Of a stretch of 64,000 nt of DNA, positions 7,473-56,179 are shown piece by piece. Source of the stretch: Mytilus trossulus (lineage: Eukaryota); NCBI RefSeq assembly GCF_036588685.1, contig NC_086379.1, positions 15,872,001 through 15,936,000 on the forward strand. The letters are read 5' to 3'. Made by a program: the position numbers and the translations under genes. The notes beneath the pieces were generated by a model. The model saw only the letters and a program-made list of their open reading frames with translations, was not told the origin of the DNA and ran no database searches. Within the stretch, counting starts at the first letter, position 1; each line of letters starts with the position of its first letter.

Positions 7473-10400
7473 TTAAGATGCTTCAATCAATCGAACCAAT
7501 TCGCTTATTGGTCTCACATACGACTTCCTTTGTCCATCAACGACTATAGACACTTGGACCTTTCTAACTTTAGAATCATCACTTTCAAATACTTTGTCAA
7601 TAACACCAAGTGGCCATTGACTTCGAGGAAGCTCGGTCTTCCGCATGAGAATGACATCACCTTCAAGGAAATTGTCACCTCCAGATTTCCATTTCGGACG
7701 AGCCTGAAGGCTATCGATGTACTCTGTTTGCCAACGAGACCAGAATTGATCGGCTAGATACTGAACAAGTTTCCACTGGCTTCGCATCGCATCCTTTGTT
7801 CCGAATTCAACTTGTCCAAGAGATCCACTTGACGACGCAGGCTTCTGAGTTAAAAGAAGAGATGGCGAAAGAACTGACGGGTTTTCAGGATCACTAGAAA
7901 CTGGAACCAATGGCCTCGAATTGACCATGGCACTGACTTCGCACATTAATGTTGAAAGTACTTCATGTGTTAAATCCTTGAACTTATTTTGCAATAACAA
8001 TGAATCTAGAATACGTCTACATGAGCCTATCATGCGCTCCCACACACCACCAAAATGTGATGCATGAGGGGGGTTGAAAATCCAAACTATTTCATTGTCT
8101 GATAAAAACTGCTTCATCGGAGTGTCTTCAACGAATTCTGATACAATATTAAGCTCCTTCGCAGCACCTATGAAATTAGTACCACGGTCTGACCTCAATT
8201 CCTGAATTGGTCCACGCAAAGCAATAAATCTTCGCAAAGCGTTAATAAAAGAGGCACTACTTAATTCCTCAATAAGTTCCACATGTATTGCACGAGATAC
8301 TAAGCATGTCAATAATAGACCCCAACGTTTGTTTGAAGAACTTGCTGCGCGTGTTCGACGGACAATAACTTGCCATGGACCGAAAACATCCAAACCTACA
8401 TAAGTGAACGGTGCATCAACTTGTAACCTGTCAGCTGGCAGGTCTGCCATTTGAGTCCAACCGAACTTGCCACGTAATTTCCTGCAAAGTACACAATTAT
8501 GGATGACACTATTGACTTTTCGCTTAACGCCTAATATCCATAAACCAGCAGCACGTATTGCGCCTTCGGTCATTGTCCTGCCCTGATGTTGAACCTTCGC
8601 ATGATAATGTCTTATGAGAAGAATTGTGACATGGTGGTTTCTCGGTATAATATATGGATGTTTGTCTAGTGGCAAGTCTGCAGTATTATCGCCCTTAGTA
8701 AGCATATGTCTGATACGACCTCCAACTCGCAAGACACCATTGTTATCTAAGATAGGGTTGAGTGATATTAACGAACTATTCTTCGGTAAATTCTGACCAC
8801 ATCCTATTGCTTCAAGTTCCGTGTGAAAACATTCGTTTTGCACATGTTTTAAAACCACAAGTTCAGCTTCCTCTGTTGTAACAGCTGATTTGTCGCCACT
8901 TTTTCTACGCATGCAAACTTTCATAAGTCGAACCATACAAACTAATTTTGACCACTTAGAAAATTTATCAATACTGTTACATAACAGACAAGATGTAGAT
9001 ACATGTAGAGTTGATTTAGCCGTTGAAATAACAGTCCTTACTTCCTTATCAATATCGGGTTCCACTAACGGGAAATTCAGATCATCGATAGTTTTTAAAT
9101 TCGTTGTTAGGCAACTCGGTCCTCTTATCCATTTGCTTGATGGTAAATCACTAGCAGAGAACGGGCGTGTCGCAAGATCAGCTGGATTTTCTTTAGTCGG
9201 GATATGATTCCATTGTTTGGGCATACTAAAGGCTCTGATTCGGCCTACACGGTTTGCGACATACACAAAAAATCTTTTTTCATCGTTCGAAATATAGCCA
9301 AGTACTATTTGGCTGTCAGTATAGAAATGAAAGTCTTCATTGTCTATGTCTAATTGATCTTTAATAATCTCTGCTATGTCTATTCCAAGCACAGCAGCAC
9401 ATAGTTCCAGACGGGGTATAGTATGTCCGTGCTTCGGAGCAACCTTCGTTTTTCCAATAAGGAATCCTATATCACTAGTTTCTCCTGAGAACACCTTTAA
9501 GTACGCAACGGCGGCTACAGCTTCCTTCGATGCATCACAAAAAACATGAACTTCTAACCTACTTGCATTCTCAACTGAATAAATACAATACATTCTTGGA
9601 ATACACAATTCACAAAGGTTCTTCAACGAGTCAACCCATAATTTCCAGCGTTTATGAAAATCTTCCTCTAGCGGATCATCCCAGTCGGTAGATGAAGAGC
9701 ATGACATAATCTCGCGTAGCAATAACTTTCCTTCTAGAGTTACTGGTGCGGTAAAACCAATGGGGTCGAATAAGCTGTTGATAGTAGAGAGCACCCCACG
9801 GCGCGTGAATGGCTTCGGTTCTGTATCGACACTAAATACAAAGGCATCTAAATTAATGTCCCATGATATGCCTAGACTTCTTTGCAACGGTAAATTTTCT
9901 TCGTCAATGTCAATGTTTTTCAAGTCTTTCGCAAGATCATCTTTAGCAAATTGTTTAAGTACTTCTGTTGAGTTCGACGCAATTTTGTGTAGTCTTAATC
10001 TGCCGCCTTTCATCAATTCGCTTTGTGTATTCTTCACTAAATCAACGACTTCGCACACACTTGAACAACTTATTAGTCCATCATCGACGTAGAAGTTCTT
10101 AGATACAAATTTCTGAACGTCTAGAGATGCCGTTTGGACAGATCTACGCAAACCATATGTGGCAACAGCTGGTGAAGGGCTGTTGCCAAATACATGAACT
10201 GTCATTCTAAACTCCTCCAGAGGTTTACTTAAATCACTATTTGGGTGCCATAAGAAACGAAGATAGTTGCGATGATCGGTCTTAACACGGAAGTTATGAA
10301 ACATTTGTTCCACATCAGCGGTTACTGCAACGCGTTCACGACGAAACCTAAGCAGAACTCCTTGAAGACTATTCGACAAGTCTGGGCCCGACATTAACAC

Positions 10401-13184: not shown

Positions 13185-13213
13185 CTTTGCTGTTGCTGTA
13201 TAAGATCTTTTAC

Positions 13214-13791
13214 TGTGATGTTACATGACCCAAAATCAAAGAACACTATAAATTTGGATATGTTTATTCCTCCTTCTACTGAGGGTAAAAGACTACAAAA
13301 AAGAAAATAACACAATGTAAATGACAAGCAAACATGCATGTATCAATCATATGATAAGTCATTTATAACAAACAATCAATATCAAACATAAAAATATTGG
13401 ATGAATAACACCGACTTTATACTAGTAAAATCTTGAAAATAAAACCAACTTTTTACGATTCACACGTTCCATACAGTGAACATTAAAAAATCTGACATGA
13501 CCCATGTGATCAACTCATTTGACGATTCGCACTTTTCATACAGTGATTTGAACAACGTGGTTTGTGTGTGAAATAATTCAAAGCGTATACTTTATAATCA
13601 GTAAAAATACTTATGTAAACTTTATATAACAATAGTTTTAAGATAAATAAATGTAAAGAACTTACTCTATGGCGCTTATAACCAGCAAATATAAGTGTTG
13701 AAAGCAGAACAAATTTGACAGGAAATGCGTCTGACATTACAGAAATACTAATAAAGGAAACAAATCGGAAATCCGTTCCGGTAACATTACA
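13214..13791 (-). repeat. 5' LTR of BEL/Pao element
   Basis: Direct repeat of 6634-7211; minus-strand AATAAA at 13263-13268. Confidence 0.96.
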
Positions 13792-13946
13792 CTGTTAGCT
13801 AGTAGTTACTGCGGTCAGATTCTTGTTATTACACAATATAACAATCAGAGTCATCTGTTATCTCGACTCTCAATGTATGGTACTGGTTGGCGGTAACAAG
13901 TTCCAAAACATTCTTTGTGAAATGAGTGTTTTTGAACTTGTTTAGT

Positions 13947-20849: not shown

Positions 20850-23800
20850 CTAATTGGTTTTGATTGCTGGTGAGATCAGTATGGTAAATAGATAAATATC
20901 TCGAAATTCTTCTATTTGCTTCTGGTGATCTGTCAACCCATCTTTTGAGGCTTCTGTTTTATTTTCATCAACTTCATTGTAAACTTTCTCTTCACCCTGT
21001 GAAACATTCAATTTATTATCTTCTTGTAAGACCCGACTGCTCAAGTCTTTGTCATATTTCGTCACTGATGGATCGAGAACAAAGTACTCGCCTTGTGCCT
21101 TGACGATGTTTGCAGGAATTACAATGTTTTCTTCCTTATTTGTACTAGATTTATTACTTTCAAGATTTGCCATCTCAATTCGTTGGTCATCAGATATTAG
21201 TCTTGTAAGTTGTTCGCTTTTCATCGATGATCTATTAAACAAAAATACAATATTTACTTTCAACATTATGACAGGTATCTAACAGCGAAAGAATACGAGT
21301 TGGTCAAAACAATACACAAATTTGTTGTCGTGAAATTTCTTAAAAACCCTAATGTCGTCAAATTCAATGACCAGACGTCATAATGATTGACCCGACGTTG
21401 CATTTTCGGTTGCTTAAAAAATTGGTTTCAAAATTAAAAACACACAAAAATAATCCGATAAATAAATTATCCGTTTCTATTATATTGATATAATTGTAAA
21501 ATATTTGCTGCTTAACATTATTCATGGTGTGGTATGGTTGCAATGAGACAAATAACCACCGTAAATTTAATGTCGTGGATACCTTGATATGTGATTTCCT
21601 GGTTTTCCCAAAGTATGCATACCGCCTGATAGAAAATTTGTGATTCGTTGAACATTTTGAAAATTGATCCACACGTATCCACGAATACCACGAAATTTGG
21701 TAACCATCGCATACTAATGTATCCAGTATATAAGCCGACGAACATCCTTATAAGATAGCATATCACGGAATATCAAGCTATAAACTGATTTGACCTACCC
21801 TAATAGATCTTTGGTCCGATAACTATGGAGAGAACCTTGCGTTCTACCTTCTTTTATTTGCTTCTTGTGAACGCCCTCCAAATCTGTCGATAATTTCATT
21901 TTGTCTTCATCAATTTCATAGTAGACACTCTCATCACCATCTGTACTACTGCATCTTTTTATTTCTGGTAATTTCTGGTTCCTCAAGTCTTTATCATATT
22001 TCGTAATGGAGGGATCGAGAACAAAGTACTCGCCTTGCGCCTTGTAAGCGTTTAAAGATTTGTTTGTAGACAGAATATTGTATTCTTTCTTGTTTGTACA
22101 GGATGTACTACTATTTAGATTTGTCATCTCAAATCTTTGGTCGATAGACTGTAGTCTTGTCGTGTTCTTTCTCTTCTTTTTCTTTGATCTGTTTAACATA
22201 TAAATAATAACTTGGAATAAGAAAAAGGATAAACATATATTTTCTTACAAATTTTGACCGGTATTTTACTACGAGAACATACGAAGATATGTTGAAAAAT
22301 AGTGAGTTAAAAACCTTGTTTAAATCGTAGCGTCTCAATAGATTATCACGATAAATTAAATACCAAAAAAGGTATTTGCAAAAATACAGAATTTGATGAT
22401 AAATTCAAAATGGAGGGAAATCATGAAACCTTAAAATATCAAACGCACGGTTATATCAACTAACAGATAATAAATAATAGCATGTACACGACATATACAT
22501 ATATGTGGAGACAAAAACACATTAGTATCTACGCACACGCACGCGGAAAAATATATCGAGAACGTTTGCAATCTCAAGGAACGAAAACTCTGCATGGAGA
22601 ATTAAAAATTACTGTTCATTGTACCTGGGAACACTCAACAGTATGGCTGATACATATATATGTTCCTGATAGTATATAAATGTTCAGAAGTAAATAGGAT
22701 GTCAACCTGATTTTATAGCAAGATAAACCTACGACTTTTTTTTATTGGCTGTTATATTGACAAAATGAGAAATCCCCACTTACATAACATTGTTATTTGT
22801 TCATAAACTTTTTTTTGAATTTTGAGTAAACATGCCAAAAATTCAATTTACCTTCGTCTGCATACATAAATAATAGCCAGTATGATCAAAAATAATATGA
22901 TTGTGCCTGTTATTCCAACTGATATACCAACTATCGCTCCAACTTTGAATATTTCTGAAAAAGAAAAAAAAACATCATTCACAAATCACATGCATGTATA
23001 TATGCAATATCATTTGGTAGATAATGGTTGCATGATTGTATATGTATGATACAAGGTAACAAACATGCCCAACAATACAATAAAAAGTAACCTACGTAGA
23101 AAAACGGTTTCATACGTTTTTAGCAGGCGCATTGATTTGTATGTTTTACAATTAAAAAACTCACTGATATTTAAATATCCGCGGTTATCATAAATTTCTA
23201 TTGACGAAACGTGATTCAATATGCAAATATATAGATAGACGCATAAATTGCATAAGTGTTAATTTAATGTCGATAAATTATCGGCTGATAAGTTACATTT
23301 TGCTAAAAACTGTTCATGCCTATCAATATTTTCTAATTATTGCTACGATAATTATTAGTGGAGTTTTAAAACCACAGAAAACCGTAAGATGCAGTTTCGT
23401 TTGACAACAAACGCTCACATTCGAAAATGGGAAAAAAGAATTTAATGATTACACTATTTTGTTGATTTTGTTGATAAAAAGGAAAATCACAAAAATACTG
23501 AACATGGAGGAAAATCTAATCGGAAAGTCCATTATCACATGGCAAAATCAAATGAAAGGGTTTTTTTTTTTCATTTCACTTGATAATATTTGTGTTCGTT
23601 TTGAGATTAATGAAACCTCAGTCTTTCTTTGAAAACAATGTTTTTTTCTTAATCATTTGGCAAATTATTCGATTGCATTTAATCTTTCCACTCGAGGTCG
23701 TGTTTCATTTCATATAAAAATCTTAAAAAAGAAGAAAATCCACAGAACGGGATTGTTCATTATGTCGTATGTTTATCTACATCATGTTCATTTCCGAAAT

Positions 23801-26800: not shown

Positions 26801-29800
26801 CAAGAATGCATTATTAGTATTTTTTGTCTATTCGTATACATTGACATTATGTAATCAATTGATAAACTTGCAATATTGATGTTAGTGTGTCATGTTTCTA
26901 TACTAAACCAAGAATGGTCGTGGTACAATGGATTGTTACTAGTAGAAACGACGATACAATGTTCATTTACTGTCACAATACAATTCTTTATAAATAGCGA
27001 AAAAGAAGCATCAAAAACTTTTAGACGTAAACGTGAAATAGTTATGTGTTCAGAACTTATATGTTGTGTTTTTCCATATCGAGAATGGACCCTTTGGTTA
27101 CAACTATAACTATAACTGCGCACATTGCAATATAATGGAAATTTGGTTTGTTATTTGCTTACCTATGAAAACAGACAATAATTCTTTGCATTCCTTAATC
27201 GTGCAGCTGTTGTTTCCAGCGCATCTTGTACATGGAAGTTTTGACTGCTCCACCAAACATTCCTTAGTTATATTCTTATGCATGGCTGTATATTAAGAAT
27301 TTGTATGAAACTATTAATTGATTGATATAAATAACTCATGTAATGAAATATGTTTAGCGACACGAGATGTTTGCATAACGTTTTATCAATATTTGTTTTC
27401 ATTTCAAAGGTTTTAACTTGAACATGAACTATTAGCAGCAAAGTATAACAGTCAAAACGTCGGTCAACAACTTGTTTTCATGATAGATGCGAACCATCAG
27501 TTCAAGAGGGACTATTATTATTACAAGTTTGAACCATAATTCTCAATCAAACAATTCAGAGTCAAAAAAACACTTCGTAAATTGTATGCTTTCGAAGCCC
27601 TTTTCGGGAATTCATTTTAAAGATAGAAGATAAAAACATAATAATCAAATCCCTCAAAGATGAAATTAAACTTAATTACCTCAACCAAAAGTGTCTAAAT
27701 ATTTTATTAGATAACAAACGTATTTTTTTAAATATTGTCAGTTACGGATCAATGACTATTGAATAACAAATCGAAGTTTTCAACGACCTAGACTAGCTAT
27801 ATATTTCACCTTTGAAATAAGTAGATCGTATATAAGTATTGATAAAAAAAAAAGATGACAAACGAAATAATTTATTCCTAATTAAATTCTGGTAATGATT
27901 TGTATGTTGTTGTGTGTTTTGTGAATTCGGGATTTTTTCTAGTTCGGAACAGTCGATTCTAAGTAAATTCTGTGGACTTTTGTTATTCATGTTTTGCTTA
28001 TGAAATATGATAGTAGTATAAAGGTAGTAGTCTTAATGCAGAGATGGGTCTGTTTACGTTCAAGAAAATTTATTAAATTACAATTGCTTTTTCGATTGTA
28101 CAGTTAAATTAATGATAACATCATGTCTCAAAGTAACTGATTAAGTTGATGCTAAAACTACAAGTTATCATGATAACATCTGAGTACAAAGAATTTTAAA
28201 ATTACCCTTTTTAATGATATAACATATGTATAAATAACTGTATAACTTTTGTTAGAATGATTTTATTTAATAGGTTATAAAATAAAAAATAATAACTTCT
28301 ATAATTTAATGAACCACAAAGATTTAAAACATACAGTATATACATGCACACTATGTCACTGATTATGACCTGTTCCTACTTTACAATCATTAATGTCGGA
28401 ATTAGTTTGACTTTAATTGAAAAAATAAAGGCAACAATAAAATTAAATATAGTCACCAAATTTTGAATTATTTGGTGAGAGAACATTATCTGTATAGTGA
28501 AAATTAAAGTTAAAGGATATTGCAAACTTTTTATCTCTCTTCCTAAGAAGTACCTGCATGACGTCAGTCTCATTATAATAAAGGAACAAGTCGGTAAAAA
28601 GGAGGACCAATTCGTTCCCATTGGAATGCAAGCAGTCTGTTCAAAAACACGTCCTCCAAAAGTACCCAAAGGGATTTCTCTGATTTACTTAAAAGACTTT
28701 TTCTGTTTCTTTGGGGGAAAATTACAAATGTTGTATAATCTATAAAACTTGGGAGACAGTAGCTAACCGATGTTCAAACCAACTTTATAAAATATAAGCT
28801 GAGGTAATAGCAAATGATTTACATGTAAAGTAAGAGGTTTAGTTAGCTATAAAACCATATTAAATCCACCATTTTCTATATAAGAAAATGCTTGTACCAA
28901 GTCAGGAATATGACAGTTGTTGTCCGTTCATTTGATGTGGGTTTTTTTTATTTTGCCATTTGATTAGGGAGGTTCCTTTTTCTTTTTATATTCAAAATAC
29001 TGTAAGTTTTGAAATCTTTGTTATCATGTGAGTTGCAATAATTTAAGGAAGTTGATCCTTACTGTCTGCACGGCGAGCACTAAGTTTTCGTAAGTATAGG
29101 CAGAATGCTTGTGATCAGATATATCATAATTTTTAGTGCTCTTCATCTATTTTTTTTCAGTTTTCAGTAGATTTATCTGACTCACTTGTTAATCTTTAAT
29201 GAAGCACGGTAATGTGTAATTCTTAAAAAGTAAAATAACAAAAATACTGAACTCCGACGAAAATTTAAAACAATAAGTCCCTAAACAAATGACAAAATCA
29301 AATGATAAAACACAACAAACGAATGGACCACAATTGTCATATTCCTGACTTGGTACAGGCATTCTCAGATGTAGAAAATGGTGGATTGAAAATGGTCTTA
29401 TAGCGCTAAAATTCTCACTTGTATGACAGTCGCATCAAATTTCATTATATATTTGACGATGCGTGAACAAAATAGACGTTTGCACTCACACCACATCTTC
29501 TTATATCTATTATAGGTAAAATTGTCAAAATAGGTATACAGCCATCAATACTGTGTCACAAGCGCAATCAAAACAAAACAAACAAATACATAACAAAGAA
29601 GCACAAAAAAGAAAATATAAATTAAACAACCACATGCATTACTACTTATATGTATTTAAAATCAACCCAAATAATTGCATGGCGAAGTTCTGTATGTTTG
29701 ATGTTGGAATGTTCACACGGGAAGATATATCAACTAATTTTGTGTTTAAAAGTATTTTGAATTTTATAATAGAACAATAACATTATGACATATAATAGAA

Positions 29801-34665: not shown

Positions 34666-35268
34666 GTAAAAAAATATTGTTAAAAAATATATAAAACTAC
34701 TGATAATTTTTTTTAATCTGATACAATACATATCTCATGTATCTGTAGAACAATTTGATCATGGCAAATAAGCGTAAGACATGTAATTGTATTAACTAGA
34801 GGAAAATAAGAAGAGTTTCTATGATTACATATCACATAGTCCAGGATTCACTTAGAATATCTGTATAGGATAAAAACAACGTAGTAGAATAAGATATTTC
34901 GCTGATATATGACGTAAGACTGTCATCATAATGTGCGCCACAACCTGTAAACCTGTATTAAATGAAAATATTTATTATCCTTTTTTTTTAATGTTACATT
35001 AAATGTGTATATTTATACATTCAATTTGTCTTTAATATTATCTATTTGTGTTTAAGCAGTTACCAAAAGTTGTACATATACGTTACACACGAGACTGAAA
35101 GATACATAATTATACAATGTTTTCACATAAAGAGGTACACAGTTATCATCAAACATTGAAGGCATATTCAATTAATTCCAAATAAAACATGTAAATTTGA
35201 GCGTTTAAACTTTTCTTCTTTTAAAATGTAAGAAAACTTGAAGCACTGTCAGTCTTTTAGCCATCGCT

Positions 35269-36587
35269 TTGCAAGCAGAGCCAAATACAATGATAGTTCC
35301 AACTATGTATTGGCTTCCGAAGCTTCACAAAACCCCTTACAAATATAGATTTATTTCGTCTTCAAGCCATTGTGCAACTACAAAATTGTCTATTCTTCTT
35401 ACCAGCACACTTGATACAATTAAAAACTTTATAATAAATTATTCAAATAAGGCCTTCGAAAATAGTGGAATAAATTACTTTTGGAGTGTCAAGAACTCGT
35501 TGGAAGTACTTGATAAATTGCATGCTTATATTGGTGATTTTGAATCTGTTCAAAGTTTTGATTTTTCTACCCTGTATACCACATTGTCTCAAATTCTCAT
35601 TAAGTAAAAATTCACACACCTAATTAAATGGGCATTCAAAAATCAGAATGTGAATATATATGTTCAAACTCTTTTAGGTCATTTTTTAGTAGCAATAAAC
35701 AAAAAAACTATGTTAATTGGACATGCTTTGATACTATATATGCCCTTGAATTTTTACTTGATAACATTTTTGTTCGCTTTGGGGATTCCGTATATCGTCA
35801 GATTATCGGAATTCCAATGGGGACTCACTGTGCACCACTTATTGCGGACCTCTTTTTGTATTGTTATGAGTTACAATTTATGACAAAAATAAGCAAAGAC
35901 CCATCAAAACTACATCTGATAAACAAATTTAATAATACTTTTAGATATTTGGATGATATTTTGGCTCTCAATAATGACGACTTTAGTATGTATATTAATG
36001 AAATTTATCCTGCTGAACTTACTTTAAATAAAGCTAATACTAACAATGACCACTGCCCTTTCCTCGATCTTGATATCTATATCACTAACGGAAAGCTGAA
36101 TACTAAAATTTATGATAAAAGGGATGATTTTTCATTTCCTATCGTTAATTATCCGTTTTTAGATGGTGACGTTCCCTTGTCACCATCTTACGGTGTTTAT
36201 ATATCTCAACTTGTACGATTCGCTCGTGTATGTAATAATGTTTTAGATTTTAACGAGAGAAATTTATGTATTACTGAAAAATTATTACACCAGGGTTTTC
36301 GATATCACAAACTATTCAAAACATTTACTAAATTTTATCATCGGTATAAAGACATCATTCGTAAATATAGCTCAACATGCAGACTTCTTATACGTTCATA
36401 TTCAATTTTTTATGGAAATATTCTTTATAAAGCACAAAGGTGTCAGTATTCACCTCAGAAACTTACAAAACCTTTGAATAGACTTATTAAAAAGGGATAT
36501 AATAACGATACTGTTGTCAAGTCATTAAAGATTTCATACTTTGGCGTTAATATTGAGTCACTGATAAGGTCTTTGCGTCGGAACTAA
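35269..36587 (+). pseudogene. Penelope-like reverse transcriptase, disrupted
   Basis: ORF pieces 35269-35607 and 35628-36587 are separated by a TAA and a 1-bp frameshift in the A-run near 35640. Confidence 0.88.
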
Positions 36588-36707: not shown

Positions 36708-37559
36708 AATCATAATCTTTCAGTCAGTTTAATTGAAGTCTGGAGCTGGCATGTCAGTTAACTGCTAGTAGTATGTTGTTATTTATGTATTATTGTCATT
36801 TTGTTTCTTTTCTTTGGTTACATCTTCTGACATCAGACTCGGACTTCTCTTGAACTGAATTTTTTAATGTGCGTATTGTTATGCGTTTACTTTTCTACAT
36901 TGGTTAGAGGTTTCGGGGGAGGGTTGAGATCTCACAAACATGTTTAACCCCGCCGCATTTTTGCGCCTGTCCCATGTCAGGAGCCTCTGGCCTTTGTTGG
37001 TCTTGTATTATTTTAATTTTAGTTTCTTGTGTACAATTTGGAAATTAGTATGGCGTTCATTATCACTGAACTAGTATATATCTGTTATGGGGCAAGCTGA
37101 AGGACACCTCTGGGTGCGGGAATTTCTCGCTACATTAAAGACCTGTTGGTGACCTTCTGCTGTTGGTTTTTTTTTATTTGGTCGGGTTGTTGTCTCTTTG
37201 ACACATTCCCCATTTCCATTCTCAATTTTATATTACTTTGTTTCTGACACAAAATGGTTAATTTAGGTGCCAAATTTATGTTTTTTAGAAGAAAAATGTA
37301 CCGACGGTGATAGAATTCGAGTTTCAGGTAACATACAGTCTCAAAGTTAGTACCAACAAGTCGAACATTTTTTTTACGTAATCTGTTTTTAAAGCATTTT
37401 CTGGACTAAGCAATAAAAGTAAAAAACAACTTCAAACGTTGTACAATGTTTAACTCTCACCTTCATACATACTCCTTGAACTACGGTGAAGAATGCAATT
37501 GAAATACATTTAATTAGAAAAAAAATAACAATTGCTAATCAATAGGCAGTTCTTAAATT

Positions 37560-38760
37560 GTGAAATGCTTAAAGTTTAGAGAACCCCAACACTTCAATTG
37601 GAATCATAACTTCAAAATGATTATGGACTCCATTGAGGACTATGCCAGAGCACGGGCTAAACGAGATGAAGTAGAACTGGACACTTTGTCAGCATGGGTC
37701 AAAACAATCCGGTCTCTGATTAAACGTTGCATTCATAAGCTGAAAAACTGTGTGAATGGTCGACCGAAATCCGTTTTCAGAGACAAAGAGACTGTGAAAT
37801 GTCTTTCATCTCTTCACGATAAGTATGTTGTTGTTACTGCGGACAAAGCTTCAAATAACATTGTCTTTGTATGTACTACTACGAGTGTCTTGTAAAAGAA
37901 TTAGGTATACACGAACACTCAGGTAATCCCATATACTAAAACATATCATTTGACAAGGATGAGATTTTGGCGAATCATAAGTCCTTCATGGCTTCAATGA
38001 ACATAACCTCGACAAATCGGAGGACTTACCTTGTTTGTATTGGATACTCAAGCTTCATCAAATTCAATACAAACAACGGTACATTGCCGGCTCATCTGCA
38101 TGTTCGACTAAAGAATTGTCAAGTATTTAAAAAAATCTATCCGCAGTGACAGAGGATTTTCAGAAAAACTGTAAAACTGTTTACTCGCGTAGTGGTATTA
38201 ACCATACGTGTATGTGGATTGAAAAAAACCTCTATAGAACTTCTGGATAATTTCAAATCTCGATCATTTTCTGAAATAAGTTCTATCAAAACTTTCGATT
38301 TTTCAACTCTGTATACCACCATTGAAAATTGAAATTGAAAAATCGTCTAAAAGAAATAATCTACATTGATTTTCAACATAACGCTATAAATTTATTACTT
38401 CGGGATACCATACGGCATATTTTGTTAATAGTGAACAAAAAGGTAAACATGCTACACAGAGGAACAAGTGATCAGTATGCTGGAGTTTCTTGTTGACAAC
38501 ATATTTGTTGAATTTGGAGGTAGACTTTTTCAACAAATTGTCGACATTCCTATTGGAACAAACTGTCCGCCTCTCCTTGCCGACCTCTTTTTAATTTCAT
38601 ATGAGTCGGAGTTCCTTCAGACACTTGTCAAAGATCAAAGAAGATAGATCATTTAATTTAAAATTTAGATATATTAATGATGTTCTTTCCATTAACATTC
38701 CAAACTTTTCTGATTGGGTTAATATATCCCCCAGAACTAGAATTTAAAGAAACAAACACG
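37560..38760 (+). pseudogene. Degenerate Penelope-like (Naiad-type) RT of a second subfamily
   Basis: KFREP, ADKASNN, LYWI.KLH, KTFDFSTLYTTI, FLVDNIFVEFGG, IPIGTNCPPLLADLFL, FRYINDVL, with many frameshifts. Confidence 0.85.
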
Positions 38761-40209: not shown

Positions 40210-41825
40210 AAATAAAGGCAACAGTAGTATACCGCTGTTCAAAACTCATAAATCTATGGACAAAAAACAAAATCGGGGTAACAAACTAAAACCGAGGGAA
40301 ACGCATTAAATATGAGAGGAGAACAACGACACAACACTAAAATGTAACACATACAGAAACGGACCAAGCATCAGACAAAATCCCACGAGAATAACAAATA
40401 TAAAATCAAAACCAAATGCATGAATTTGGGATAGACAAGTACCGTGACACGTCTTATCGCAATGTGAATTTACACTTAAAAATAAGAGAAAACAAACGAC
40501 GCAACGTTAAAATGTAACACACACAGAAACGAACAATAATATAACAATGGTCATATTCCTGACTTGGTACAGGACATTTTTAAAGGAAAAAATGGTGGGT
40601 TGAACCTGGTTTTGTGGCATGCCAAACCTAGCACTTTAATGGCAATGTTAAATATAACATTGAAATGACAACATAATATTACAGGAATACAATACAAACA
40701 AATGGGAGAACGTATTAGACAAAGAAACACATGATTAATAGATAACAAAAAGCATCAGGTTTAAAATTTAATACGCCAAAAACGCGCTTGGTCCACACAA
40801 GACTCACCAGTGACGCCCAGATATAAGAACATCCCTATTATTTAGAACAATTAATGCTATTGCAAACAGTAAATTTTATCAAATGAATATAAAAGATATA
40901 CATAATGAAACTGAAGTATTAACTAACTACAGAAAACAAAAACCGGAATACATAATGCAAAGACCAACTTAGAATAAACACACCCGACTCAGTCCAGGCA
41001 TCAACGCAATAAATCATAAAAATGACGTCACATACGATGGTGAAAAGGCACAAAAATTACGTCACATTTGAATTTATGAAATTTCTGGAACAGCACAAAA
41101 ATGACGTCACATATGAAAAACTATATCTCAAAAGTAAGATAGAATTAGGATTGATTTAAGATTATAATAGAACTAAATACTGATATTACATTTAAATACA
41201 ATGCATATTGCAATACTTATTAATAGCAAGTAACTATAATATATATATGTCCAGTTTGTTATGAATCCAACTTCAAACGTAAATTATCGTACAGATTACG
41301 TTGAACAAAATTAAATCTAATAAATGAAGGCGGTGATTAATTTTTCTTTCCATAACACATAAATATAATAGTAAAGACGTCAACACATTTGACAAAATCC
41401 GATGAGAATTACAAATATAACATTAAACATTTAAACTAAATACATGAATTTGGGATAGACAAGTACCGTAAAACGTCTTATAGTAATGCGAATTCACACT
41501 CAGCAAAACAGTCACAATTGGGAATAAGTCACGTTTGGTAATTATAAGATTAGACGACATAATGACAAACCACAATCTACCATGTGGTGAAAATGTTCTT
41601 AGCTAGTTTGTTCAAAGACACATCGTATGGATCCACCAATTCGTGATGGTGTCCATAAAATTTACGGAGTGTCAATTTTAATCTGTCCTCCTCATAACTT
41701 TGTTGGAGCAGTTTCTGCGTAAGGAGCACACTCCTGTATATGAAGTCCGTATAATGTGAACAAGCACGTGAATAACGTATCAATTGTGATATGTAAACAC
41801 CATACGAATGGGCAGATGATATGTA
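40210..41825 (-). mobile_element. 3' end of a Penelope-like element (RT thumb at 41577-41825 plus long 3' region with degenerate hammerhead at about 40771-40818)
   Basis: SYGVYISQLIRYSRAC...LTQKLLQQSY...LRKFYGHH. The 3' region has internal repeats (40420-40475 vs 41445-41500) and GCGTCA-CTGGTGA-GTC...GAC-CAAG. Confidence 0.75.
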
Positions 41826-42494
41826 GAGGGTTTAACAAATAACTTTTAATGCATGGATACCAAAAAACTCACTTTATTCCATTGATAGACCAATTTTTGT
41901 AATGATTGAAAAAATAATTGAATGTATTATATATGACTGTTTTATTTTCCATTTTCCCCCATCTAATCCACGGTTGATTAGTTCATTGTGACCATTTTCT
42001 TATAAGCTTTTTAGTGGTATTTATTGTAGTCTAAATCTTTCAATCGTTCTTATTTTCATACCACCATAACACAGAATGAACTTAAATTCCCAGTCTTGAA
42101 AAAGACGGCATGGTTACTTCACAACACGCACAATTTCATATAACCGATGACGGTCACTTGATACTTACAACTGAATATTTGCGCCAAAAAGGACAATAGA
42201 TTGAAAAAATATCAAGTGAATCCAACTAGCTTCTGTTACACAAAAAAGGGTTTTGATATGGTTCTATGTATTGAAAAGTACAAATAATCGCCGTATGTGT
42301 ATATCGAAAATATTGATGCGTGGTTTTGTCACGCATTGTCTTATTTTGAATATTCAAATACGACAATAAGTTTTACAATAATTATTTAAAAAAAACGGTG
42401 TCAATTATGTATTGCATAAATGTCCAGTGATTATTTTCAATTTCTCTGTATTAATTATGACATGATAACATTTTGGATTTGTCTTATGTCAAGT

Positions 42495-45400
42495 TCATCT
42501 TTCATGTAGCCTGATCATCGTTATTTCCGATGATATCTTGGTTTCATTCTTTATGTGTTCAGCTAAATCAAAGTCATTAACTTTTCTGTCAGCTATATCT
42601 ATTTCGTATTTGGATCTATTCAGTCTCTCAAAAATAGCCGGGAGAATTACGACAATAGAACTAGTAACCATAGAAACTCCTGCAAAGTAAAATCCGGATT
42701 GATATGCGCCGAACTTGTCTGTCAAAAATCCTATAAAATAAAATAAAAAAAATCATAAATCGAATAGATACTCGTCGTTTAAAAACTAGAAGATTGTGTA
42801 TATTGATGTCCTGTATCAAAATTAATGTCCATTTCAATCTTTCCATTGTATTTGAGGCTTTACCGAAATCTAGTCGATAACCTAGTACAATATATTACCT
42901 CACAATCAATTGCGGTCACAAAATCTGATGAAAATGTTTTAGGTAGTGTTTTCCTGGTTGTATCGAGTGTTTATATTGTTACTGTTCTTTTATTCTTGGT
43001 CATTAGAGAAAAGTACATTTCCTTGTCTGATTATCTCAGTACTGGAATTTACTAGAAAAATCATTAAACACATTTTAACAGACATTAAGCCTTATTGTCA
43101 ATCAATTCATAAAAGATGTATCATTGTGATGACACTGAAACATACACAGCGCATTGCACGAGGACGAAATTATCCAGTTATTACATCAAGCAAAACCAGT
43201 ACTAAAGAATCAAGCAATAAAAAAAAGAAAACATACTTGAGTCAGTAATGGGTATAAATAGATTAACATGTAAATGCTATTTATATAATATGAGTTGTTT
43301 AGTTTTTTTAATTTGATCTAGATTACATACCTGCCATAGGTGGACCAACGAGGAATCCAAGACCTTGAAATAACAGAGCTATACCACATGAGCTGGCCAG
43401 ATTCTCTATTCCGAGAAGGTCCACTAAAATAACTGGTGGCAACACATTGTATGAGCCGCCAGCAAATAATCCTAAAATACAGGAATATAACACAAAGTGC
43501 CAATATTGGCTGGCAAATACACAACATATGCTAGAAACGCCACTTGTGAAAATAGCAATCACATACAAGTTCTGTCGATTCTTCTTAAAAAACTTAATGT
43601 CACATAAAATTCCAAGCATTATACGTCCAATAATATCCGCTATCCCAGATATAGACAAAAGGATGGCTGCATCCTTCGATCTTATACTGAATTGCATTGC
43701 CAAGGCTGGCAACATAATAGATGCAGGTGAGTGGCCAAGCGTTGCTAACATAAAAGATATACATAAACAAAGAAAGCGATTATTTGTCAGTAATGTGTAA
43801 TCGAAATAATCTTTTACAGTTTTGTTTTTTTCAATAATTGATTGTCGGCACTTTTTATCATTGTTGTCATTGATCAGTTTCTCTGATATAATTGTATTAG
43901 AAATTTCGTTGACTGATTTGTTTTGAATCCTTTCCTGAACAGCAGCCACAGCGAAATCAGTCGATTCATCATTTGTAAATACTTTATTTGAAATCCCTTC
44001 CAAACTAGATACTTTGTGCTTTGCGCTTTTGGGGACAGAAAGAAATAAAGATCCACAGACACACATATTTAACATTACACCGCTCATAACCAGCATTGTT
44101 CCTTGGAAACCGTATTTCCTCAGGAGAAATTCCAAAAGTGGTGCAAAAATAAAAGTCCCTACTCCTGACCCAGCTGTTGCAAGACCGTTAACGAGTGATC
44201 TTCTTTTATCAAACCATCTCCCTACTATTATAATACTTGAGATGTTTGCCAATGACTTTCCAATACCTAATCAAACATATATGATATATTGCATTAAAAT
44301 GACAAAAGTATGCTAGCTGAACCAGGTTCAAAGCAAAGATAGTTGTTTTCGCATATTCATTTATAAAAACGTATAATCCTTGAAAGAAATAGCACTTGTA
44401 TTTTGTAATTCTGCAGAAAAAAATCTATCTGATGTTAGTTGTTTTGGATTAAGCTTTGTAAAAGTCGTTTCTTTTTTGTACATCGAATCTTTTGATGTCT
44501 TCGTTTTGACAAACGTGACAATATCAACTATCTTATTTTAAATTTCTGATGTATCAAGCAAGAACATATCTATTGCACTATCGTATGGTGTTAAGAATGT
44601 TGTTGCGCGAAGATTATGTACAAAGCACATAAAACCTAATGGCATATTTTTATCGCACATTCACTCCACAATTTTTATATCCATACTTAATTACAAAGAA
44701 TAATATTTTTTAAAACGAGATTATATACGATTCCAATGAAATTTTCAGATTATTTTTTTTTAACGATTTACCTGTTTATTTGGAAAAGGAAACGCATTTT
44801 TCAGAACGATAACTTTATCTTGTAAAGTACATTCATATTTACGGATGCTTCATGCAATGATAGCCAAGTTTAATCCCAAAACAAATCGGTGTATACAATA
44901 TGTGGACAATGAAGTGTAGATCTGGAACAATTAAACTGTGCGGAAATGAACAAATAATATCAAAATAATGCTATAATATCAAACAGATCAAAGATGAGAT
45001 GGACAAATCTATGTTTGTAAACATTGTAAATGAAGGCAAAGTCCTTCAACCTTTTTTTGGACAGTACCATTAAAGACATAAATAATCAAACAGAAATTGT
45101 GAATAAATAGAACTCGAAGCTAGAAACATGTGCTATGAAATGCACCAACATCGTTCTAAAAGGATATAATTATGACCATAAGTACAGATCATGAGAGTCA
45201 AACGTATATCAAATTTGAAACATAACAGTAACAATACATTCTATCATTCTTAAACATTGTTCTGAGTGTGGGCCTTTTATACGAAGAACTTTTAATTTAA
45301 AGACTGTTTCTTTTATCTGATATAAAAAAAAATAAACTTGCGATGAATACATACATGTAAATATCAAGATGTAAATACGTTAATCCCACATATCTACTTA

Positions 45401-48089
45401 TATGCACTGATCATGGGTTTTTAAGCTTTTCCATTAAACACGTACATTTGACGTAACCACCACTAAATAATACACATTTTGTATCATGTGTATCATGCAC
45501 ATTGTGTGTAACATAAAGAACCTTAAAGTATAAATGATGGGTGTGGGTAATTTCTAACTGAGACTTTTAAGTTTGACACGTGGGCATAGTCTTTCTTCAA
45601 CACTATACCATACGAAAGTGTTCAACATCCAATTAAAGAAAATATAAGAAATTGAACTGAAATATCACGCAACTGCCAATGAAATAAACCTTACTGATTT
45701 AAAGAGTTATATTCTAAGTTCTAAGAACAAAAAGTACTATTACAATTTGAAATTACCTGCTACAAGGCCGTAAGTTAAAAACATATACTCTATTTTAGGC
45801 ATAAATCCTGTGGTGAGCCAACCAATAGACGTAAACACCCCTCCGACTACAGTCATTGAGCGACAGGAAAACCTTGTGCTCAACGCACTTGAGAGTGGAC
45901 CTGAAAAGTATAATTTTATTTGTTAACGGTATTGCGAAATAAGAATCGTTCATTTTGATGAATTTCACTTTTTGAATATATTTCTGTTTTCAATAAAGTT
46001 TAAATATTTCGAATAGAATATATACATATTAAAGCTTTAGGAAAATGTTGTTTGTGCTGTTTTTAGACACTTCTACTACGAAATTTGTTTTACATGCACA
46101 CGTATAAACATTGTGGTTTTTATCCAACGCAATCATAGGTTTGAACGTAGTTTTCAATTTAGACTCGATTATAAAAGTAATATATATATATATTGACAAT
46201 CGTATGATAAATAAAAAAAAATAGAATAAACTGTTCTTTTTCAATTTATATAATACAGAACTAATCTTACTGAAAATTAAGGCCATTGCGTTAGCCACGG
46301 AACCAACCCAAGCTGTTTTACTTGCATTCTCGTGGAATAATTCCAATAATTCAACGTATAATACACCAAATGTGTTTACAGCACCTCCGATTAGAAGGTG
46401 AATTATCACTGCACCTGTAAACCAAATAAATGTGTATAAATTTATGAATACACAACTATTATGTATAGATGTAACAGTTGTAAATCATATTTGAATTTGT
46501 AAGTAGACCGTTTGTTTTCCCGTTTGAATGGTTTTACACGTCCAGTAATTTTTGGGACCCTTTATAGCTTGCTGTTCGGTGTGAGCCAAGGCTCCGTGTT
46601 GAAGACCGTAAGTTGAGCTATAATGGTTTACTTTTACAAATTATGACTTGGATTGAGAGTTGTCCCATTGGCACTCATTCCACATCTTGTTATATCTATC
46701 CATCAGTTTCCTGTTTTTATTTTGGCAGGTTTACATTATAACTCTAGTTAAAAAAAGTATTGATTTTTATTATGTTTCTTACACAGAACATACATGTATT
46801 CGATAGTCATTCATTGTATTCTAGAAACGAATTTATTTGCGTAAAAAAAGTAGGTCAGTGTAACTGGCACTTTATTCATTAACTTCGATACCAAAACAAA
46901 CTTAACGTGACGGTACCCAAATTGCACCTATTTTGACAGTTTTTTCACCTACGGTTTTTTATGATCAAGACAAACATTCTATTCTGTGTTTATTTTGTAG
47001 CCGTATAGTTCTTGATAATATAGGTACACCAATTTGATTTTTAATCCATTGCATCCATGCTTAAATTCACACCATTAAAAATCAAATAACAGATATTTTT
47101 TTTTTTTTTTCAAATATTTAGAACAATTTGACTTTAGTACAAACTCACTATTCATTTTTTTCTAAATTGATGTTTGTGACATTTTTTTTTGTTCATTTTT
47201 AAAAGATGACTTTTTGTGAACGTCGCATGGTGGCGTTTACGTAAGTTTTTCTTTTCCAGTGAAAGTTTCATCTGTTGATATAAATTGTGAACGTTTAGTG
47301 TATATTTGAATATTTTAACCTATTTTGTAAGACGTGTATATTGTCCAATAATCCAAATACAAATTGTTTAGTCTCAAAGAAAAAAATTAAGAGTTTCTCA
47401 GCTGTTTATGTTCAATAGATGCAATTTGGGTACTCGGTGCAATTTGGGTACCGTGAAGTTATACACCAACTTCTTTGTTGTTCTCAAACAGCTTGTTAAG
47501 CCAGATGTTGAAAACGTTTATTCAATTTGATGTCACTGACATTTTTTTTTATGCTGCCACTTTATGCTGTTACGATTGTCAGAATTCATTGGCCGTATAC
47601 ACTTTGTCGTTAGAAAAAGCCTTGTTTGTGACGTTGAAATCATAACGCACATATTAATCTATGACGTCATTAATGAATGCAGGTTCGCGGAACTTTAGAG
47701 TCGTTCTTTCTAAATTCATTGTTATTGATTTTAATCCAAAATGGTTCATTCAAAACATTCCAAGAGATGCAGTATAAATGGAACAACCATAGTTGTCTCA
47801 AAATAATACATTGTAGTTGTACTAGTTTCTAATTGGATATAGAAATGCCTCGCAAAGCCTCACATTCTATCTGTTTCTTAGTCTTGTACAAGTCCATTTA
47901 TATATTGAGTCAAAATATAGTTATTCTAAAGTATTTTATTATTTCGATTTAAAATATTCAACTTATATATATTAATTGTAAATAAATATTCTTACCCACT
48001 ACTACAATCCATCCCCAACCTCCATCAGGAGCTTGTACGTCGTGATTTGCATCGTTATCTTCATCTTTCTTTTCAAAAGGTTTGGACAT
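42495..48089 (-). CDS. SLC16/MCT-family monocarboxylate transporter (MFS), about 517 aa
   Basis: Exons 48089-47996, 46414-46271, 45900-45757, 44266-43331 and 42730-42495; all introns GT-AG and phase 1; total 1554 nt. Motifs PDGGWGW, WFDKRRSLVNGLATAGSGVG, GIADIIGR, GPPMAG. Confidence 0.92.
46905..47459. mobile_element. TA-flanked MITE in MCT intron 1
   Basis: TIR ACGTGACGGTACCCAAATTGCACC / GGTGCAATTTGGGTACCGTGAAGT; TA on both sides. Confidence 0.8.
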
Positions 48090-49365
48090 CACTCTGAAAG
48101 TTGTTTTAGCATGTATAACTATATTCAGCTGTTCTCGTGTTTTAGAATGTACAAGGAGCAATGGAAAATCTATTGACCGAGAACAATAGAACATTTAACT
48201 CTTATGAAAAAGTCGTGAAAATCAAATCAGTAATGCTGGTGATGATAGAGGCTAAAAGTTATTTCTAAACAGCATTGAATTTCGTACATTTAAAAGAAAT
48301 AATTTATCAAACTGTTTCTTTAGAAAATCATGTCTAAACAACATCTAAAGATCTTTCCGTTCAACAATTTTCGGAGTTTTCCACAAAGTACATTGCATGT
48401 TACAATTTTCACAAAATGTACCTCTTTCACATCTAAGTGTTCGAGTTCACCAGTTTGTCGGGTGAACGTTCAATATAGAAATATTGGTTTTCCGTGAATA
48501 ATACAGTTTAAAAGTCTGTCATTGCAGGTTAAACAAAATAGAAATGAATATTTTCATTAAATAGGTTATCCGTCCAAATTTTAAGAGAAAGTCGTCTTGT
48601 TTTTTTTTTGTACATATATTTGCGGTCTTCTCTATCAATTTCCATGCAATGTTTACATAAGGATAAGGACCGTTTTAATTTCATTGATATATTCACTTCA
48701 AAAGTATTAAATCTGTAATCTAGCTGCATACATGTACTGATAATTTGCAAGTTCTAGAGAAGTATACAGAGAGTAGAAAAAATATTTTGAAGTTGGTACT
48801 CCAGGATTATTTTCGCATAGCAATATTTTACACCAATTTTGTACCAAGCTCGTCGTTTGTTATTTATAGTAAATGAGAACATTAAATGGAAGTTTTATTT
48901 TTCCCTTTCTGAATTTAATTTTATTTTCACTATTAACAGAACTTTTATTCGTTAACTTATAATTGGTTTCAAGTTTTCAGTGTTTTCAATGATAACCTGA
49001 ATAGGGAACCTGTCAAGCGGTATTATATGGTTTTTATAATTTTATGCATCCTGCCAATTCGGTCATTCGTAATGTTCTTGTCTATCGTATTTGCTTGTGT
49101 GCTTTATGTTTTGAGTGTTTATATGCATTTTTTTTATATTTGTTTTGTTGACATATTTGTTACTTTTGTATTGATTAAGATTATAAAACAATGTTTACTG
49201 CTGTACCCCAATATTTGACATTTTTACCTTTTATGACTGTTTGTTTTGATCACACATCGTTATCAATATAATGGTATTTTATGGGACTGTCATACATGTG
49301 AGATGTTTCGTTAGCTATAAAGCTAGGCTTAATCCTCCATTTTCTACATAGGAGATGCCTGTTCC

Positions 49366-52890: not shown

Positions 52891-55472
52891 TTACATGTCA
52901 TCAATGTTCAAGATTGGTGTAAATATCTCCTCGAGCACATTTTCTATCTCTCTGCTCTGTATGGACTGTAGGATCTTTCTTAGCCAGGAATCGATGCCAT
53001 GTTGTCCACAATAAAAGGGAATATTGAGGTATTTTCGTATAAAGTTGTACATTTTCATTGTGCCTGGAATAAGATAGTACAATATTTAAGAGAATGTATC
53101 GAAGAATGTATGAGATGACTATTTCTGTCGCAATATCATATCGAACATATTGAAATTTTACGACAGACCTAGATCATTTAAATAGAATTTGAACGGTAAT
53201 GTGTAACAATTAAATTTGAGTATTAATTCTAATGTTTAGCCCACTTCTGGGTAAGTCTTCAAAAAGTTAGCTTAGTATTAAAAAATTTAGAAAAATATCA
53301 AATTTGACTGGAAAATATTTAAAATGTTTAAATAAATTGATAACAACAACCTTTTTGACACCGCCACATTTTCACGTGCCTTTTCCATTCTCGTCAGTAT
53401 TTGTCGTATGTCAAATTTTTTTTTTTCCGTTTTTTAGATATATGGGTTTTGATAGCAGTATACTAATGTTTTGGTTTAATTAATTTTAACTTTTTAAGAC
53501 TCGGTACGATTTAGAGTGTTACAAATAAAAAAACACACCTGTGATTGTTGGAGACTGCATGTTCGCTTTTAATGTATTTGGCTTATTTTTGTCGCTTGGT
53601 TGCTGTTCCATAATTGACGCTTATCCCATATCTACTTTTAATCATATTAATGCTGTCTATTCATGTGAATTTCACCATTAATTTTAGTTTATCATTTTTA
53701 ATAATAGAGAGGCTTTTATCTCCCCATCGTTATGATTTTATATAAGACAATATAAATGTTTATAATCTACCTTTTCCCATCTGTTTGGCGGCATCTATAT
53801 TTCCATTACATGCATTTTTGTAAAGGGTACACATTCTATTTGAGAGACGTTCCCCAGCTTCTGTGTGTTCTTTTCCTGATAGGAAATTTGTCTCCTTCGA
53901 AGCCTTTTGTTTAGATAAAAACAGCAAGTCATACCATTCTATCTCCTTTAAAGTCGACGTAATGTCGAGATATTCTTGCGCAAGTAAGTCAATTTCTTTA
54001 AGAACGAGATTTCGGAGGTGACGTAGATCGATGGCCTGTGCAGTCAGAAGAAGTAGGTTTGCTGTCATCATTTGTACAATTTCAACTGCCTCTGAGGTGA
54101 ATCGCGCGGAGACTAAAGCCATTGAATTGATTGCCTGGTTGTGGCATTCTGCACTCAATATATGATTACTCATAGGGTTGACAAAATGATCGAGTTCAGA
54201 CATGTAAGAGGTCATTGCTATATCACAGCCTTTGAATCCGAAATCAACATTGATGTCACATCCACTTAGATTCGGTGGCAATCCGAAATTCAGCTTATCA
54301 TTTACAACCTCTTCGAATAGAGCAAATTGTAGCTTCCCGCAAATTCCAAGCGCTTGTCGTGTTTGGTCCATTGCGATAGACATAGTTTCTCCCTGGAAAT
54401 TAGCGTTATGTAAAACTGTATCTGTGCGATGGTCAATTAGTGGATTATCATTTGCGCTGTTAAGTTCAATTGTTATTCTTCTGCATGCTTCGTTAAGTGT
54501 TTCAACAGCTGGTCCAAGCCATTGTGGTGAACTCCGCACACTATAACGATCTTCCTTAAGAACTCCACATTTGTCTGGCAGGTTCATGTCTAATGTCGTG
54601 ATAGCTAACTTACTACCTTCTAGAATTGACAACATATTCCTTGCTATTTCTTTCTGACCTATATGAGGAAGACAGTTGTGGATAAGAGGATGGAAGCTCT
54701 CTGTTCTTCCTTTCACTGCTTCAATTGACAGTCCGGTACATACTTGGGTAAGAAGAAGAAGCAAATTTGCGTCATAAAGTGTTGGAGCCGAGAACCCGGC
54801 AGTGAATGAACATGAATTTATTACCCCTAAGCCTTCCTTTGGGCCAAATACAATCGGTGATATACCAGCCTCTGCAAGAGCTTGTGGACAAGACATTATT
54901 TTCCCTCCTTTAAACACTTTCATATCTTCTCTTCCTATCATGGTTGCTGCAATATAACCTAGAGGCATCAGATCTCCGCTAGCACTAACAGATCCACGCA
55001 GTGGAACTTCGGGCACAATATCGTTATTGATAAGATCAGTCAGAGTTGTGACCACTTCAGCACGTACTCCAGAATATGCTTTTGCAAGACAATTTGCCCT
55101 CGTTACCATTGCAGCCCTAATCATTTCTAAAGGAAACATTCGACCCATTCCAACATTTACAAGACGGATCAACGCCATCTGCACATCTTCAAATTTACAC
55201 GAACGCACGTCGGAACTTCCACCGAAGCCTGTGTTTATCCCATACAAAACAAGTCCTTTTTCTAACTTCTTTTTTAGATACACTGCATTTGCTGTTAACT
55301 CTTCCATGGATATTTCAGCAATTTTTACTTTCATGCTTGGCTCAATGCTGACTGCAAGGACTTCTGGTATGGTTAAAGTAGTTCCATCGAGCGTGATACT
55401 GTCTAACGTGTTTTTCCTTTTTTGGATGAATGTTAAAGTTGTTCTTGCATGAGAATTATCCATTTCTGTCAT
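52891..55472 (-). CDS. MIO-dependent aromatic amino-acid ammonia-lyase/aminomutase of PAL/TAL/PAM type, about 624 aa
   Basis: Coding exons 55472-53771 and 53063-52891 (phase-1 GT-AG intron; 1875 nt including stop). Motifs YGINTGFGG (catalytic Tyr), PLRGSVSASGDL (ASG/MIO, 54975-54983), KEGL..IN, DRYSVRSSPQWLGP, NDNPLID, NFQG, GFKGCDIAM, SAECHNQAINS, and C-terminal MYNFIR..L.I. A splice acceptor at 55491-55492 with an in-frame stop before the ATG suggests a 5' UTR intron. Confidence 0.93.
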
Positions 55473-56179
55473 TTTCCCAAATTAAAGAACCTGCGTTATG
55501 GATAGATTATTTTACATGTTTTACATCATACGAAAAAAACTATGTCTTTTTAATAAGATAGAAACATGAATTACAAATACAGTATTAATTCCGTTAAAAA
55601 TAATACAGAGGCTTCTTTCTTAGTAATGCCTAAGAACTATAAAAAATTAATTCATTTGTTTGGTATAATAGTAGTTCTACGTTTGTAGTTAACGTTTGAA
55701 ACGTTTTCAAACATTAAAAATGATTTATCGACAGCCCCGATAATATTATATGATAATTTTGAGTGCCTTTTGAGACCTTCGCAAAATATCCATCCTAGTC
55801 TGACTTCAGACATTAACATACAAACAAAACATTACACTCGAAATCTCAAAATGTCCACGAATTAGAAAGTAATTGAGATTGATTTAAAAAATACTATAAA
55901 AGGTCTACCATTTATAACTAAAGCCAAACATAGACGATACTCTTGGTTTTGGACAGACCGTCATAAGAATATGTGACATGCCTATACTACTTACCCCTAC
56001 CCGCCCTGTTGACCTCACCACCCCATCCTCACTTGTAATAATGATCAGAGTATAAGAATAGGTAAATAAAATATTGTTATATTCTATTACATTTGCATGA
56101 TGTCGTTCCAAATAAGCCACTTTACGTTAAACATCTGTCCATCTTTCCATCGCATTTATTACAGAAGGATATTTAATAA

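Follow-up and report, generated by a model that had tools for sequence, protein, structure and literature searches.

A putative MIO-dependent ammonia-lyase gene with an altered selectivity segment in Mytilus trossulus, and its lophotrochozoan relatives

Structure and surroundings of the lyase gene

The window, which is the whole stretch of DNA analysed (64,000 nucleotides of the Mytilus trossulus genome, contig NC_086379.1), contains a two-exon gene for an MIO enzyme on its minus strand. The spliced product, 624 aa long, has no internal stop or frameshift. The gene is composed of the following parts, in window positions.

52891..53063, minus strand: coding exon 2, the last 57 residues and the stop (82% identity with the tail of the paralog P0004 in tblastn; in-frame join)
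53064..53770, minus strand: phase-1 GT-AG intron inside Gly568 (donor and acceptor)
53771..55472, minus strand: coding exon 1 of the predicted aromatic amino acid ammonia-lyase (MIO-dependent), with residues 1-567 and the first base of Gly568 (ORF and translation, TIGR01226 profile, donor GTAGAT)
55473..55492, minus strand: 5' UTR; the AG at 55492-55491 is probably a splice acceptor (break of a contig from run X1, pyrimidine-AG context)

Exon 1 was read as part of a minus-strand ORF (55472-53760), which continues into the intron past Gly568. A truncated gene, ending in GKGRL* as this ORF does, was ruled out because exon 2 exists and joins in frame. At the 5' side, the X1 contig matched 55383-55492 and then diverged from the window exactly at the predicted acceptor; a search for the upstream 5' exon with the loose end of this contig gave no match within the 64-kb window.

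The AF2 monomer model of the product (pLDDT 90.6) exhibited the all-helical PAL/HAL fold, and in a Foldseek search with this monomer the best folds were those of parsley PAL and Taxus PAM (TM 0.84-0.88); the active site itself extends over more than one subunit. All the marks of the MIO family PF00221 are present, namely ASG at 164-166, Y77 and R313. Against the NCBIfam profile for PAL (TIGR01226), the unspliced 570-aa ORF scored 519 bits for a cut-off of 519.15. The protein fell below every NCBIfam cut-off for HAL, TAL, TAM and PAM, with 298 versus 539 bits for the HAL profile TIGR01225 and, for the aminomutase profiles, 383 versus 1250 (TIGR04473), 275 versus 800 (TIGR04475) and 245 versus 501.

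About 5 kb downstream of the lyase gene and in the same orientation lies a multi-exon MFS_1 transporter gene (42492-48095, minus strand), whose product starts with PDGGWGW, which we take to be a hallmark of monocarboxylate transporters. The record P0046 fuses the lyase and MFS_1 genes, so that the two are also paired in another Mytilus assembly. This neighbour might transport an aromatic acid product.

Other elements were observed elsewhere in the window. An apparently intact 1915-aa ORF of a Bel/Pao retrotransposon (Peptidase_A17, DUF5641 and integrase zinc domain) occupies 7473-13220 on the minus strand, flanked near 6930-7271 and 13510-13794 by matching repeats, which are likely LTRs. Two similar short ORFs at 20850-21278 and 21795-22244 (minus strand) share a QGEYFVLDPS.TKYDK segment and have no Pfam match; in sequence, they look like a duplicated tyrosine-motif cytoplasmic tail. 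Reverse-transcriptase-like frames (GIPMGT, YLDD) at 35242-36587 on the plus strand probably belong to a Penelope/LINE-type element, fragments of which were found at 28376-28684, 37557-37895 and 41577-41831; the longest of these frames had no Pfam match at E 0.01.

Active-site residues and the sister paralog

The active-site segments of the protein are located as follows, with residue equivalences in the numbering of parsley PAL, checked on PDB 1w27.

55242..55244, minus strand: catalytic Tyr77 (parsley Y110)
55149..55175, minus strand: selectivity segment ALIRLVNVG; by alignment, Leu104 and Val105 correspond to parsley F137 and L138 (His/Val in the sister paralog)
54975..54983, minus strand: Ala-Ser-Gly triad that forms the MIO, residues 164-166 (translation)
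54534..54554, minus strand: carboxylate-binding EDRYSVR, with Glu307 (parsley Q348), Tyr310 and Arg313 (alignment; AdmH reads IEDAY)
54393..54410, minus strand: HNANFQ, with the Mytilus-specific Asn356 and the common Ala357 (clade alignment; HNGHFH in AdmH, HGANFQ in Taxus PAM)
54219..54245, minus strand: DFGFKGCDI, with Phe411 (the family norm), the retained Lys414, and Ile418 (parsley I460) (clade alignment)
54135..54149, minus strand: ECHNQ, with Glu442, Asn445 and Gln446 (parsley E484, N487 and Q488), which is PAL-like, AdmH having TGDFQ (alignment)

The motifs reported in the preliminary description were all recovered in the ORF (QMALIRLVNVG, ASG, KEDRYSVR, HNANFQG, DFGFKGCDI and AECHNQ), although DFGFKG falls just beyond the interval 54380..55180 assigned to them there. 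The claim that the catalytic residues are kept was likewise confirmed. Retained residues, given as parsley = window, are Y110 = Y77, F116 = F83, L134 = L101, ASG = 164-166, L206 = L168, L256 = L215, N260 = N219, Y351 = Y310, R354 = R313, N384 = N343, F400 = F359, K456 = K414, I460 = I418, E484 = E442, N487 = N445 and Q488 = Q446. Six positions are altered relative to parsley PAL: F137L, L138V, Q348E, G397N, G398A and Y453F. The corresponding codons are L104 at 55163-55161, V105 at 55160-55158, E307 at 54554-54552, H355-N356-A357 at 54410-54402 and F411 at 54242-54240.

Positions 137 and 138 are described as variable specificity positions, with His at 137 conferring TAL activity (PMC9226071), which agrees with the earlier statement that this pair modulates substrate choice; the pair was also correctly seen as hydrophobic and smaller than FL. 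According to the same source, F137V in parsley PAL enlarges the pocket for para-substituted rings. The site of Glu307 positions the substrate carboxylate (PMC5651878, PMC11374720). The mark of TAL or PTAL, a His at parsley 137 or 138, is absent from the protein (Leu104/Val105) and present in the paralog P0004. The marks of HAL are absent as well, LV and Gln446 standing where the HutH locus L005 has SH and NQED (Glu at the Q488 site). With respect to the PAL zymophore (at least 18 of 19 active-site residues), the protein mismatches at the equivalents of F107, L108 and Q311, which would give a score of about 16 out of 19. Characterised PALs deviate from the PAL active-site motif at one position at most (PMC5651878); with its three mismatches, the protein, which appears PAL-like, should thus not be filed as a canonical PAL.

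Plant and fungal PAL/TAL (parsley PcPAL 1w27/6f6t, Rhodotorula PAL/TAL; TIGR01226, PF00221) are alike in fold (TM 0.84), belong to the same major branch, and share 40-45% identity, the MIO triad and the catalytic Tyr, Arg, Asn, Lys, Glu and Gln with the mussel protein. In contrast to them, this protein has LV for FL or HQ, Glu for Gln348 and Asn for Gly397, is shorter (624 versus about 716 aa), and belongs to a separate animal clade. Taxus PAM (TcPAM; 2yii, 3nz4; TIGR04473) was the best PDB sequence match (E 4e-113) and has in common the Ala of HGANFQ and a residue other than Phe at 137, but differs in its Cys/Leu pair, its Gln319 and its membership of the plant clade. The bacterial-type enzymes AdmH/PaPAM (3unv) and EncP (TIGR04475) are only about 30% identical and share the equivalents of Val138, Glu348 and Asn397.

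The earlier comparison took plant PAL as its baseline, which was the wrong one; the proper comparison is the His-type sister paralog in the gene's own clade. This paralog, P0004 (LOC134724796), is encoded in the same mussel, with 80% identity and the same intron position. It exhibits HV, QDRY, HGANFQ and Thr418, a TAL-like combination, where the window copy has LV, EDRY, HNANFQ and Ile418. Out of the 71 differences in the core, those at or beside the pocket are H104L, A220S, D221C, Q307E, G356N and T418I. At the protein level, differences affected 39 out of 153 variable columns (25%), 24 out of 162 intermediate columns (15%) and 8 out of 150 conserved columns (5%); they were thus five-fold depleted in conserved columns, and most were conservative substitutions. 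The branch leading to the window copy (about 0.15) exceeded that of the HV paralog (about 0.12) only slightly.

A lophotrochozoan clade with a labile pocket

The closest named matches were proteins of Mytilus trossulus and M. galloprovincialis. At least 14 genera occurred among the matches listed: the bivalves Mytilus, Mya, Dreissena, Pinctada, Ruditapes, Mactra and Mercenaria, the brachiopod Lingula, and the annelids Owenia, Ridgeia, Lamellibrachia, Dimorphilus, Helobdella and Capitella. Gastropods, cephalopods, oysters and scallops were absent from the named matches listed (best 120 each), which hints at patchy loss. The alignment comprised 218 domain rows that cover the core, taken from 266 proteins; 77 rows belong to the animal clade and 141 lie outside it. 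In an IQ-TREE analysis of a 67-row subset, the 22 sampled clade rows were monophyletic (100/99) and nested in a group of plant, fungal and other eukaryotic PALs (100/99), away from bacterial-like rows, the group labels being partly inferred. Within the clade, the tree roughly follows animal groups.

Among 78 clade proteins aligned at Gly568, the match stopped there in 52 (read-through gene calls), the spliced tail was present in 18, and the position was not reached in 8. One intron position thus appears to be common to mollusc and annelid homologues, which would make the gene an old resident and not a contaminant. Contamination or recent bacterial transfer was ruled out by this common intron position, the animal-type neighbourhood and the placement of the tree inside eukaryotic PALs.

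Several clade members already bear automatic PAL labels in databases. In the literature searched, with subscription journals mostly outside its scope, we found no description of an animal PAL/TAL under Mytilus, bivalve, mollusc, Lingula or annelid, and the portion consulted of a 2022 article on MIO evolution (PMC9002059) mentions neither molluscs, annelids, Lingula nor invertebrates. The animal branch of the plant/fungal PAL family is apparently undescribed so far. To our knowledge, PAL and TAL are usually seen as plant, fungal and microbial enzymes, animals being credited with HAL only.

Domain fusions were also observed among relatives: in P0121, P0125, P0126 and P0127, an AMP-binding (4CL-like) domain is fused ahead of the PAL domain, and P0121 has two lyase domains, one with HL and one with FL. 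From their domain order, these fusions look like a lyase and a CoA-ligase in one chain.

Set against the 77 clade rows, the changes proposed earlier as non-standard differ widely in rarity. DFGFKG is ordinary, since the F411 site has F in 55 rows, M in 19 and Y in none. HNANFQ is unusual only in part: Ala357 is common (33 out of 77), but Asn356 was found only in Mytilus (8 out of 77). The pair LV does differ from FL, but the switch is very labile and LV is one of its states. Position 137 has H in 47 rows, L in 20, F in 5, S in 2, V in 2 and A in 1; position 138 has L in 59 and V in 13; and the pairs observed were HL, HV, HI, HS, LL, LV, LM, FL, VL, SV and AV. The selectivity pair has changed separately many times, with about 20 changes of the His label on the tree. 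EDRY, in contrast, is non-standard as had been proposed, Glu307 being the one truly rare change. At the Q348 site, Q occurs in 73 clade rows out of 77 and E in 3, all from the Mytilus paralog to which the window gene belongs, and outside the clade Q occurs in 137 rows out of 141. Among the 411 proteins fetched, 314 showed the motif, with Q in 305 and E in 6, five of these six again from the window gene's paralog. Because the HV paralog also has Val105, and LL paralogs also have Asn356, only Glu307 is unique.

Whether these changes are private to one copy had been raised as a check, and they are not: LV is present in P0002, P0003, P0285 and the unrelated P0021, and Glu307 with HNANFQ recurs in P0002, P0003, P0134 and P0046 (89% identity, with EDHY as its motif). 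Overall, the protein exhibits six departures from the clade consensus, about the clade median.

At the site of Ile418, His-type relatives mostly have Thr. The association of His104 with Thr418 (28/19/2/28) gave a phi of 0.53, whereas none of 520 control column states exceeded 0.41; among independent pairs, 7 changed the same way, 1 the opposite way and 7 were ties (p 0.07). These counts are suggestive of the two residues travelling together across the clade. By parsimony, the root of the whole clade is non-His, so that His as the ancestral state is supported no further than the bivalve group around the window gene. The NGT motif, near-invariant outside the clade (G in 137 and T in 136 of 141), is variable inside it (A/S/G at 220; S/A/T/C/D at 221); these positions adjoin the catalytic Asn219.

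Reaction and substrate of the window copy

Taken together, the sequence comparisons favour, with a probability of about 0.5, an intact Mytilus-specific duplicate of an old lophotrochozoan MIO enzyme of PAL/TAL type, in which the tyrosine-type pocket seen in the sister was likely lost and which is likely a Phe-type ammonia-lyase whose aryl pocket is hydrophobic and looser. This reading draws, among other things, on the whole catalytic set and the complete MIO machinery, which are intact in the protein, on its fold and on its place in the tree. The amine of the substrate would add to the MIO, Tyr77 would take the beta-proton, and cinnamate and ammonia would be released. Leu104 and Ile418, in replacing His and Thr, would remove the polar partner of a para-hydroxyl, and with that partner lost, Phe and non-polar ring analogues would be preferred over Tyr and DOPA; Leu/Val in place of Phe/Leu would leave extra room. 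Glu307 would retune carboxylate binding, probably at the price of lower efficiency or looser alpha/beta regioselectivity, in an enzyme that is still alive. As His137 gives TAL activity, the His-type clade members are likely TAL/PTAL and the Leu/Ile-type members likely Phe-type; the window copy likely fits the latter group, with a pair smaller than FL. EncP carries Glu at the Q348 site (PMC11374720). At 30 °C it behaves as a PAL, and warming brings out PAL activity in AdmH (PMC3903478); a Glu at this site, present in these two working enzymes, is therefore compatible with catalysis. Against this reading, the activity of AvPAL drops with small residues at the 138 site (L108A/G) and benefits from larger ones (bioRxiv 2021.06.06.447205), and plant lyases and mutases are not separable by active-site residues alone (PMC5651878).

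Substrates related to DOPA had been suggested for a mussel enzyme. Use of DOPA or Tyr is disfavoured here: the window copy lacks the His137 linked to TAL activity (PMC9226071), which makes DOPA unlikely and, on the pocket residues, the least likely substrate; no support was found for a link of DOPA with the byssus. Another ring-substituted aromatic amino acid (halogenated or methylated Phe or Tyr, DOPA being much less likely) as the natural substrate of an enlarged pocket is quite unlikely. LV is indeed smaller than FL, parsley F137V favours para-substituted rings, and the many selectivity pairs in the clade would be expected if substrates vary; however, the equivalents of Leu134, Leu256 and Ile460, which govern ortho and meta room (PMC9226071), are all unchanged, Val105 is also found in the His-type paralog, and phenolic substrates fit poorly with the loss of His.

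An aminomutase, also proposed earlier, fares no better in its full form. The link has in part more substance than first described, AdmH agreeing with the protein at three sites (Val, Glu and Asn) and EncP at one (Glu; PMC11374720); the other residues of (S)-PAMs are absent. A Phe 2,3-aminomutase or bifunctional PAL/PAM, partly convergent on the AdmH/EncP active site and yielding beta-phenylalanine, is quite unlikely too. In its favour are AdmH (3unv; NLINAVATNVG, IEDAY, HNGHFHG), which shares Val138, Glu348 and Asn397 with the window protein and with which two more plasmid genes annotated by TIGR04475 agree, and the top PDB sequence matches, which are Taxus PAM variants. In Taxus PAM, moreover, the Q319/Q348 site and L108 steer the alpha/beta outcome, with 77% beta for L108A and 71-84% beta for R325K, Q319M and Q319L (PMC11374720). 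By contrast, Q311M and F107C created no beta-selectivity in AvPAL, and the dynamics of the inner loop decide between lyase and mutase (PMC6413883). The scores of the window protein are far under the aminomutase cut-offs, and Cys107 of Taxus PAM is absent. AdmH and its two annotated relatives carry Met116, Ala137, Met456, Phe460, Thr484, Phe487 and TSG, none of which is found in the window protein; at these sites it has F83, K414, I418, E442, N445 and ASG, PAL residues everywhere but at 137. Among them, Phe487 is presumably the key residue of AdmH/EncP-type (S)-PAMs.

A decaying or dispensable duplicate, in which the pocket changes, chiefly Glu307, are tolerated damage and little or no activity is left, is rather unlikely. 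Four related records look damaged or partial, some perhaps through annotation: in P0002, the MIO loop is spanned by an internal repeat, and out of 10 core differences 5 are in conserved columns (G82S, G190E, D342N, L398F and T421A); P0134 is a fragment of 220 aa; P0046, as annotated, has no N-terminal half and carries R309H; and P0003 (M. galloprovincialis) ends at residue 486, directly before the CGA codon of the window (Arg487, 54012-54014). The end of P0003 would fit a CGA-to-TGA nonsense allele. In favour of decay, conserved-column differences numbered 8 between P0001 and P0004, versus 2 for the similarly distant pair P0004/P0005, and RNA support for the window gene is weak. Contigs from run X1, presumed to be RNA, were about 99% alike over 54428-55062 at a depth of about 3, with none in the intron; run X19 gave 9 reads on the gene, 7 of them 90-95% alike; and runs X16 and X22, with no reads, have no bearing on expression. 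On the other side, the frame and both splice sites are intact, the changes relative to P0004 avoid conserved columns and are mostly conservative, the differences between P0001 and P0003 fall in 5 variable columns and 1 conserved column, Glu307 and Asn356 persist in the 89%-identical P0046, and neither the departures from the consensus nor the branch length sets the copy apart.

The more surprising result is the animal family itself, with its repeated pocket changes. Phenylpropanoid-entry chemistry that predates the split of molluscs, brachiopods and annelids, with a pocket switched repeatedly and the Mytilus duplicate as the first animal aromatic aminomutase or halo-aromatic lyase, convergent on AdmH/EncP, would be an unlikely extension of these findings. 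An old, intron-bearing and duplicated animal clade nevertheless implies an uncharted route from aromatic amino acids to cinnamates. With natural His-type and Leu/Glu-type paralogs in one genome, the mussel offers a direct test of positions 137, 348 and 460, and the pair is a possible new biocatalyst scaffold.
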